From: a virus | Taxonomy: Duplodnaviria; Heunggongvirae; Uroviricota; Caudoviricetes | DNA length: 37,322 nucleotides | Direction: 5' to 3' (one strand) | IMG/VR virus record: IMGVR_UViG_2908567220_000001 | Span: 1 to 37,322 of that record | Shown here: one piece after another, positions 26,902 through 28,637 of the stretch | Position numbering within the stretch: position 1 is the first letter of the stretch | How the letters are laid out: each line of letters starts with the position of its first letter | Translations under genes and position numbers: made by a program | The notes under the pieces: model-generated | Database searches by the model: none | Told to the model about the DNA's origin: nothing | Seen by the model: the letters and a program-made list of their open reading frames with translations, nothing else

Positions 26902-27161
26902 TTAATGAACAATGACAGAATCGTCGGAAGAACCGCCGCCGCTGAAATGCGCTTTCCGGTAAACGGCTTGGACTGCATCATCATGCGCATCAATTGCCGT
27001 ACTTAACGCTTCCTGCGCCGCCAGTAATGCACGGCGTTCCAGGGTATCGAAGATGCAGAGTCGGTGACGCAGCTCGCGCGGAAGGATTGCCAGAATTGCT
27101 GGGATCAGCTTCTGAATTTTTTCTCTTTGCGTTTTCGTTTCACCTTTCAACCAACGGTGAT
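26902..27161 (-). pseudogene. ydaT: 3' fragment of IS629-disrupted ydaT-like gene
   Basis: 82-codon frame (LKGETKTQREKIQKL...) in frame with the 5' fragment across the insertion; together 140 aa. Confidence 0.7.
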
Positions 27162-27203
27162 TGAACCGCCCCGGGTTTCCTGGAGAGTGTTTTATCTGTG
27201 AAC

Positions 27204-28094
27204 TCAGGCTGCCAGATCATCGTTTCCGATGGAAGCATAATAAGCTTTTTCTGCTTCTGCCGGAGGAGTATGGCCCAGCCTTCCCAGCAATCGTCGATTG
27301 TTATACCAGTCCACCCACGTTAGTGTGGCCAGTTCCACTTCTGCACGGTTTTTCCAGCTCTTACGGTGTATTACCTCCGCTTTGTAAAGACCATTGATGC
27401 TCTCAGCCATCGCGTTGTCATACGAGTCGCCTGTACTCCCTGTTGATGCCAGTAATCCGGCTTCTTTTAGTCGCTCCGTATAGGCCAGTGACACATACTG
27501 AGAGCCTTTATCGCTGTGATGGATGGTGCCAGACGGACGACGGGCCCACAACGCCTGCTCCAGCGCATCCAGCACGAATGTCGTTTCCATAGACGATGAG
27601 ACCCGCCACCCCACGATGTATCCGGCAAACACATCAATGATAAACGCCACATAGACGAAGCCCTGCCATGTGCTGACGTAAGTAAAATCAGCCACCCACA
27701 GCTGGTCAGGTCGTTCTGCCACGAACTGACGGTTTACGCGGTCGCCTGCGGCAACGGCTTTCCGGCTGACGGTAGTGCGGACCTTTTTACCCCGGAGAAC
27801 ACCGGCAAGTCCCATAACTGCCATGAGACGTGCCACAGTGCATCTGGCCACTCTGATACCTTCCCGTAACAACTGACGCCAGACTTTACGCACACCGTAT
27901 ACCTGGTGATTTTCATCGTATACGCGCTGTATCTCTTTCTTCAGCCAGTCATCGTGCTGCGCACGGGCACTGCGTTTATCCGGATGATGTCGCTGTTGCT
28001 GACAATGGTAATACGTTGACGGGGCAATATGCAGTTCGCTACATACCGGTCCGACCCCGTACTGCTCACGCAGCTTATCCAGCAGTGGCATCAT
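27204..28094 (-). CDS. IS3-family transposase OrfB
   Basis: 296-aa ORF overlapping orfA by 4 nt; inside the IS boundaries. Confidence 0.9.
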
Positions 28095-28417
28095 TTTTTC
28101 CAGAGGCGGTCGAACTCCGCCTTCGCAAAATAAGCGGAAGCCTGGCGAAGGATATCGTTACTGCGGCGCAGTTCACGATTTTCACGTTCCAGCTCTTTCA
28201 GACGCTGACGTTCAGCGCTGGTGAGCCCACCATCACCGCCCCCGGTATCCCGCTCATGCTGGCGAACCCAGACACGCAGAGTCTCCGGCGTACAGCCAAT
28301 CTTTGGGGCAATGGAACAAATTGCCGCCCACTGTGAGTCATATTCATCCTGACTTTCCAGAACCATACGAATCGCCCGCTGACGGACTTCGGGGGAAAAA
28401 CGAGTATTTTTAGTCAT
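28091..28417 (-). CDS. IS3-family transposase OrfA (HTH and leucine-zipper region)
   Basis: 108-aa [24 protein letters not shown]...; AGGT RBS; recalled as IS629/IS1203 OrfA. Confidence 0.9.
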
Positions 28418-28471
28418 CCTGTTTACCTCTTTCTCAGGGAGTTTAGTCTCCAGGATTTCCGGGGCGGTTCA

Positions 28472-28637
28472 GATAGATATTCTGCTGATTGTTCCAGTCC
28501 TTGCCTGGAACCAGGGGCAATTCGCCGCCCCCCTGGCGCAGATATTCTTCAGTAATTGCATTGGCTACCCATGCCTGCCCTTTTTCGGCTGCTAGGGCAA
28601 ACAACACTGATTCGATGTGCTCATGCTTGATTTTCAT
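28472..28637 (-). pseudogene. ydaT: 5' fragment of IS629-disrupted ydaT-like gene
   Basis: Starts MKIKHEHIESVLFALAAEKG...; 55 codons before the insertion; frame continues 9 codons into the IS. Confidence 0.7.

Follow-up and report, generated by a model that had tools for sequence, protein, structure and literature searches.

YdaT from the Escherichia coli prophage Rac has been characterized as a tetrameric helix-turn-helix (HTH) transcription factor, in which helix α3, carrying H56, R57, and W58, contacts DNA and helix α6 (residues 95-128) serves as the tetramerization scaffold, the H56A/R57A variant abolishing binding (PMC11879457). It binds the site termed the YdaT-box and stimulates PracR4, a reverse promoter lying within ydaS, by up to 29-fold, thereby raising racR expression, and it also activates the host gene rcsA (PMC11879457). 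A role of YdaT as CII analog was argued earlier by Jobling from gene order (PMC5917428), and for the CP-933P homolog, too, a role analogous to that of CII has been described, with activation of a PRE-like promoter (PMC8630535; PMC9986795). Whereas type II toxin-antitoxin is the older database label of YdaS/YdaT, each gene was found to be singly deletable and both proteins to be transcription factors (PMC5700377, PMC8630535, PMC11879457), and YdaT is now seen as a CII-like transcription factor and not as the toxin of a toxin-antitoxin pair (PMC11879457, PMC8630535, PMC5917428). Here, we analyzed a stretch of 37,322 nucleotides (IMG/VR record IMGVR_UViG_2908567220_000001; hereafter, the window), which was found to be the first 37,322 nt of CP024978.1, the chromosome of the pig-diarrhea strain CV839-15, a porcine enterotoxigenic E. 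coli (ETEC) (PMC5824013), and in which ydaT of a Rac prophage is split at codon 56 by the insertion sequence (IS) IS629/IS1203. Very probably, a resident copy of this element transposed into codon 56 and converted ydaT into a pseudogene, as a step of prophage decay or domestication under which the dependence on RacR should persist.

The interrupted gene was reconstructed in silico. Removal of the IS and one copy of the GAT repeat yielded an open reading frame (ORF) of 423 nt encoding 140 aa with the junction Y55-H56-R57-W58, and the deduced product was identical to YdaT of K-12 MG1655 (WP_000693797.1) at 140/140 residues. This protein scored 44.7 bits against Pfam PF06254 (cut-off 21) and was matched by the solved YdaT-family structures 3c4r and 8bt1, while a search of NCBIfam returned no model matching YdaT. 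At the nucleotide level, the excised locus of 1688 nt was 100.0% identical to the uninterrupted racR-ydaS-ydaT-ydaU region in five complete genomes, and its identity reached at least 99.8% in each of the 40 genomes listed; 549 genomes carried 80% or more of the locus. The agreement of the boundaries and of the reconstruction with K-12 YdaT and with the empty sites lies far beyond chance. A sequence-only reading of the window had proposed that an IS629-like element with a 3-bp duplication splits a ydaT-like gene whose fragments rejoin in frame to 140 aa, and had suggested comparison with intact ydaT and a search for the uninterrupted locus; the element, the duplication, the in-frame junction, the YdaT-family similarity, and the empty site were all recovered. 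Its “82-codon 3′ fragment” stood only in part, in that a 3′ portion does exist but the 82 codons represent a mechanical TTG-started ORF, the true remainder being codons 56-140.

In its present form, the 5′ ORF continues for nine codons into the IS (LNRPGNPGD, followed by a stop codon) to give a product of 64 aa (28637..28443), whereas the 3′ fragment contains both the recognition helix with H56-R57-W58 and the tetramerization helix α6 (helix assignments: PMC11879457). An intact YdaT, namely the recognition helix joined to the N-terminal domain and accompanied by α6, is therefore not encoded, as the IS splits codon 56. Judged from the sequence, the present ydaT is a pseudogene, and the allele should be null because the surviving product of 55 + 9 residues lacks the recognition helix and the oligomerization helix. 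This fusion, the sole translatable product expected of the locus, should neither bind DNA nor oligomerize.

The inserted element was identical over its entire 1310 bp (100%) to copies annotated as “IS629” and “IS3-like element IS1203 family”, and because of this full-length identity it is an intact IS629/IS1203, which is more than merely “IS629-like”. Its terminal inverted repeats (TGAACCGCCCCGG...) are imperfect, matching at 13/13 terminal bases and at 22/25 over the first 25. The orfB product scored 316.9 bits against the NCBIfam model transpos_IS3 (cut-off 160), and an ALIL programmed-frameshift pseudoknot scored 119.2 bits (gathering score 50; E = 1.4e-31, Rfam RF01497); orfA and orfB are predicted to be expressed as an OrfAB fusion via -1 frameshifting. 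IS3-family elements transpose by the copy-out/paste-in route. With its ORFs and ends intact, the copy in the window may plausibly be active in transposition. The transposase genes run in the direction of ydaT, and when the IS ends were scanned for strong terminators and outward promoters, nothing rose above shuffled expectation. In the identity of the element, the orfA/orfB organization with ALIL, the DDE transposase, the duplication of 3-4 bp, and the location in a prophage, the insertion resembles other IS629/IS1203/IS3411 insertions in prophages; the element being the same as elsewhere, what is particular to the window is the insertion site at ydaT codon 56. Copies 100% identical to that in the window were also found on the CV839-15 plasmids CP024975.1 and CP024976.1, an observation that fits recent transposition out of a resident IS pool. 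We thus propose that the porcine ETEC lineage already possessed an IS629/IS1203 copy, whose transposition into Rac ydaT at codon 56 generated the 3-bp GAT duplication.

IS629 is multi-copy in CV839-15, occurring on the chromosome and the plasmids, and its genome was put together by hybrid PacBio/Illumina assembly (PMC5824013), so that a copy misplaced into ydaT during assembly had to be considered. The clean target duplication and the perfect reconstruction argue against such an artefact, as do three other, independent assemblies (LVMU01000279.1, LVMT01000110.1, and Logan ERR4899643), each of which carries the same 5′ junction, encodes the exact 64-aa product, and is 100% identical to the window over 2-6 kb. 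A misassembly is accordingly extremely improbable, and this reading may be taken as effectively refuted by the sequence comparison. The 64-aa product is likewise encoded in CP024978.1 at positions 22443-34637, in agreement with the numbering of the window. Because the other assemblies share the same 5′ junction at 100% identity, the four assemblies carrying the allele indicate a small clonal lineage. Searches with the whole interrupted locus and with a 300-nt junction probe retrieved the identical interrupted allele from 0 of the 5426 complete RefSeq E. coli genomes, and the exact junction had no match in IMG/VR viral contigs, JGI metagenome contigs, or GTDB representative genomes. The allele is rare.

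As summarized in Table 1, the remainder of the immunity region is well preserved. The RacR, YdaS, and YdaV proteins are identical to those of K-12 and YdaU differs by one residue, in line with the sequence-only assignment of the region to a RacR/YdaS/YdaT-type module; racR diverges from ydaS-ydaT with a shared operator region, and the gene order is ydaS-ydaT-ydaU-ydaV. The two intergenic substitutions relative to K-12 are located at window positions 29030 and 29037, in the operator/promoter region, and both are shared with KKa014. The PydaST-like promoter was the sole signal above shuffled expectation in the promoter/terminator scan. The YdaT-box is intact in sequence, while the protein that binds it would now be missing. 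The gene calls of CP024978.1 omit racR and ydaS, although neither ORF is disrupted in the DNA and the sister assemblies do call the two genes; this looks like an annotation gap with no difference in sequence.

Table 1. Coordinates of the features discussed (window positions, except for the last two rows, which refer to loci extracted from OkiPb01713)
Feature	Position	Strand	Remarks
ydaV	25279..26025	-	DnaC/IstB-like ATPase, lambda P position; same operon, downstream of IS
ydaU	26032..26889	-	DUF1376, lambda O position; same operon, downstream of IS
ydaT 3′ fragment	26902..27161	-	Rest of codon 56 to codon 140 and stop; without own start codon or ribosome-binding site
Target-site duplication, copy 1	27159..27161		GAT (ATC on the ydaT strand)
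IS629/IS1203 element (IS3 family), complete	27162..28471	-	1310 bp; left inverted repeat (IRL) at 28471 end, right inverted repeat (IRR) at 27162 end
orfB of IS629, 296 aa	27204..28094	-	HTH_21 and rve DDE integrase core
ALIL programmed-frameshift pseudoknot	28020..28136	-	orfA/orfB overlap; Rfam RF01497
orfA of IS629, 108 aa	28091..28417	-	Pfam HTH_Tnp_1
Target-site duplication, copy 2	28472..28474		GAT
ydaT 5′ fragment	28472..28637	-	Codons 1-55 and first base of codon H56 (166 nt)
YdaT-box ATGATTCATGAAAATCAA	28627..28644	-	Exact match to the site footprinted in PMC11879457; overlaps ydaT start codon
ydaS (Cro analog), intact	28660..28956	-	PF15943, 107.7 bits; protein identical to K-12
racR-ydaS intergenic operator/promoter region	28957..29079		2 single-nucleotide polymorphisms (SNPs) vs K-12; identical to natural isolate KKa014
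PydaST-like promoter (TTGACA-18-TAATAT)	29012..28983		Within racR-ydaS intergenic region
racR repressor (CI analog), intact	29080..29556	+	NCBIfam NF049929 equivalog, 244.6 bits (cut-off 200); protein identical to K-12
OkiPb01713 ydaT::IS, GAT locus (L002)	3259-4568		IS
OkiPb01713 ydaT::IS, GAAC locus (L011)	4001-5310		IS

Beyond the immunity region, the window is colinear with K-12 Rac from 24807 to 27161 (99.87% identity) and from 28472 to 37322 (99.83%), through ydaW′, ydaV, ydaU, ydaT, ydaS, racR, ydaF, sieB, kilR, ydaE, racC, recE, recT, ralR, rcbA, xisR, and intR; the colinearity reaches the end of intR, which is also the end of the window, the ttcA junction lying outside. On these sequence grounds the locus is a genuine Rac prophage. 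Compared with K-12 Rac, it has identical RacR, YdaS, and reconstructed YdaT proteins, flanking DNA of 99.8-99.9% identity, and the same YdaT-box and gene order; it differs in that ydaT of K-12 is uninterrupted, two intergenic bases are changed, and the K-12 prophage is much less complete. At positions 1-24800, the prophage keeps genes for lambda-type Nu1/A terminase, portal, S49 protease, capsid, tail tape-measure protein, lysozyme, lysis, and a DUF1133/Q-like antiterminator, and this terminase-to-Q-like set has been lost from K-12 Rac. No complete RefSeq genome covered more than 72% of this portion.

Loss of YdaT in such a background invites comparison with lambda cII null mutants, since YdaT occupies the cII position and, like CII, acts as an HTH tetramer and activates a promoter of repressor establishment, located within or close to the cro-like gene (PracR4 / PRE933P). 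By this analogy, the boosting of repressor synthesis should be impaired and its maintenance spared. Unlike CII, however, YdaT has no full-length homology to that protein, activates the host gene rcsA, and is toxic. In the window, YdaT-dependent activation of PracR4, and with it the CII-like boost of racR, would be expected to be lost, and the rcsA activation and filamentation driven by YdaT upon loss of RacR would be expected to disappear. Because the IS lies between ydaS and ydaU-ydaV within one operon and its transposase genes are co-oriented, two further consequences are plausible, namely a polar effect on ydaU and ydaV, the replication genes located downstream, which is probable, and read-through from PydaST into the transposase genes once the operon is de-repressed.

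RacR, YdaS, and the operators being wild type, repression and the dependence on RacR should meanwhile persist, and the insertion would most simply constitute a step of prophage decay or domestication that is neutral while RacR silences the operon. In this respect, the sequence-only reading had supposed that loss of ydaT may relax the dependence on the repressor. In a K-12 ydaT deletion, silencing of racR still caused severe growth arrest and killing, and protection was seen solely when ydaS and ydaT were both deleted (PMC5700377); likewise, deletion of racR was possible only in cells lacking ydaS-ydaT (PMC5700373). RacR should thus still be needed because ydaS is intact here. As a second group attributed the toxicity to YdaT only (PMC11014345), some relief is nevertheless possible, and the relaxation would be at best partial. 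The late and lysis genes of this fuller prophage may furnish additional reasons for RacR to stay essential. The accompanying supposition, that prophage stability may be affected, found no favor in the literature, in that over-expression of YdaT left Rac excision unchanged, whereas YdaS did change it (PMC11014345).

Among the 5426 complete genomes, only that of the bovine E. coli strain OkiPb01713 (NZ_AP042682.1) shares the insertion site, with an IS629 variant at the identical ydaT nucleotide, in the same orientation, and flanked by the same GAT duplication. This variant differs from the IS in the window at 41/1310 positions (97% identical), the ydaT flanks of the two strains are identical at 239/260 and 157/166 positions (396/426 nt, 93%), and the reconstructed YdaT proteins agree at 134/140 residues; furthermore, the cro-like and cI-like neighbors of ydaT in OkiPb01713 differ from those in the window. 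The variant is identical to a second copy in the same genome, which splits a CP-933P-type ydaT in another prophage at about codon 98 with a 4-bp GAAC duplication, and removal of this second copy restores an intact ORF of 141 aa. The CP-933P-type ydaT adjoins a paaR2-relB/parE-like module. Because the IS copies, the ydaT alleles, and the neighboring genes all differ, and because each IS matches copies in its own genome, the comparison points to two separate recent events. Two random, independent hits in ydaT would coincide in site and orientation with a chance of about 1/846, and the recurrence thus hints at target preference, selection against YdaT, or both.

To our knowledge, IS629 is at present regarded as lacking target specificity. 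The coincidence in a 93%-identical allele with different neighbors, together with the identity of each IS to copies in its own genome, would nonetheless be accounted for if codon 56 of Rac-type ydaT were a preferred target of the IS629 family, so that targeting by the transposase, over chance or selection, brought both copies there. This can be entertained only tentatively: the cases number two, no sequence hotspot of IS629 emerged from a published survey (PMC3271280), and comparison of five IS629 flanks gave no convincing consensus, a C preceding IRL in 4/5. Moreover, no further same-site junction was retrieved from the 5426 complete genomes, IMG/VR, JGI metagenomes, or GTDB representatives. 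The site could also have been inherited by both strains from one old insertion that was later reshaped by recombination and gene conversion of the IS, a scenario that competes with a hotspot and against which the differences in IS, allele, and neighborhood are set.

The recurrence could alternatively reflect adaptive inactivation, in which leaky or stress-induced YdaT is harmful through filamentation and RcsA activation and IS629-rich strains supply the knockouts. Three IS629-type insertions in ydaT-family genes, two of them in one genome and one being that at about codon 98 of the CP-933P-type gene, would accord with this proposal, as would the toxicity of YdaT on expression (PMC11014345, PMC11879457) and the different -1 frameshifts at ydaT codons 41-47 in several public contigs. 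The last were found via the 82-aa 3′ ORF; in these contigs, ydaT is split into ORFs of 57/58 aa and 82 aa by different 1-nt deletions (CCCC to CCC or GG to G), one such contig recurring in 10 samples. The split into 58 aa and 82 aa was considered as a footprint of IS excision and rejected, the IS site being untouched and the deletions lying 20-40 nt upstream in short C/G runs. These lesions may be genuine null alleles, or homopolymer errors of sequencing may account for them, a possibility that detracts from their weight. In addition, the CP-933P YdaT was reported to be non-toxic (PMC8630535), and about 62% of the IS629 copies in O157 reside in prophages (PMC3271280), so that hits in prophage genes are to be expected. 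Rac-type ydaT is full length in 1456 of the 1506 complete genomes having the gene, in agreement with the published statement that the locus “remains unmutated” (PMC11879457). Adaptive inactivation is, on this evidence, unlikely. The broader proposition that codon 56 is a genuine sequence or structure hotspot of IS629-family transposition, and/or that selection in IS-rich pathogenic E. coli leads time and again to inactivation of ydaT-family genes by IS629, is possible but rather doubtful.

Transposition of a resident IS629/IS1203 into ydaT, with a neutral outcome under continued RacR control, thus remains the preferred explanation, although several points weigh against it. The loss of function and the polarity are predictions from the DNA. 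The identity of the main toxic product, YdaS or YdaT, is disputed (PMC5700377 vs PMC11014345), which bears on the dependence on RacR. Finally, the recurrence at the same site in another strain suggests that chance and neutrality may not fully account for the event.

All components of the case are known: a known IS, a known and well-studied gene, a known prophage, and a published genome combine in an ordinary insertional pseudogene, which has little import beyond the annotation of the strain. No description of an insertion at ydaT codon 56 was found in the literature searched. The window nevertheless offers a naturally occurring ydaT allele that is presumably null and has well-defined limits, in a racR+ ydaS+ background and within a Rac prophage much fuller than the K-12 remnant. 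The strain could therefore help to settle the dispute between YdaS and YdaT over the lethality of RacR loss, and could show the effect of a CII-analog knockout on a fuller Rac-type phage. The recurrence at the same nucleotide in an unrelated strain provides a cheap lead on the target choice of IS629, which is described in the literature as unknown.

Several further observations concern the Rac neighborhood. Two hit pairs in the complete-genome search were set aside, as they proved to be IS copies beside a truncated ydaU or downstream of racR and thus outside ydaT. NZ_CM185152.1 and NZ_CP114128.1 contain other IS629-family copies in the same Rac-like neighborhood; one such copy abuts a truncated ydaU and links ydaU with a gene for a tail tape-measure protein, an arrangement resembling an IS-mediated deletion, and another, flanked by a GAC duplication, lies immediately downstream of racR. 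In the window itself, rcbA (about 35581-35791) has A7 instead of the A6 of K-12 and KKa014 at position 35692, causing a frameshift after codon 39, and this may mark rcbA as a pseudogene or else be a homopolymer error of long reads. An IS5-type element occupies 21148-22351 (transposase, 21221-22201) and is 94.5-96.4% identical to two K-12 copies of the IS5 family; it is followed by a 483-aa ORF without a Pfam match (22524-23975) and directly preceded by a 292-aa ORF (20302-21180) that has weak similarity to the N-terminal domain of type I restriction R subunits.

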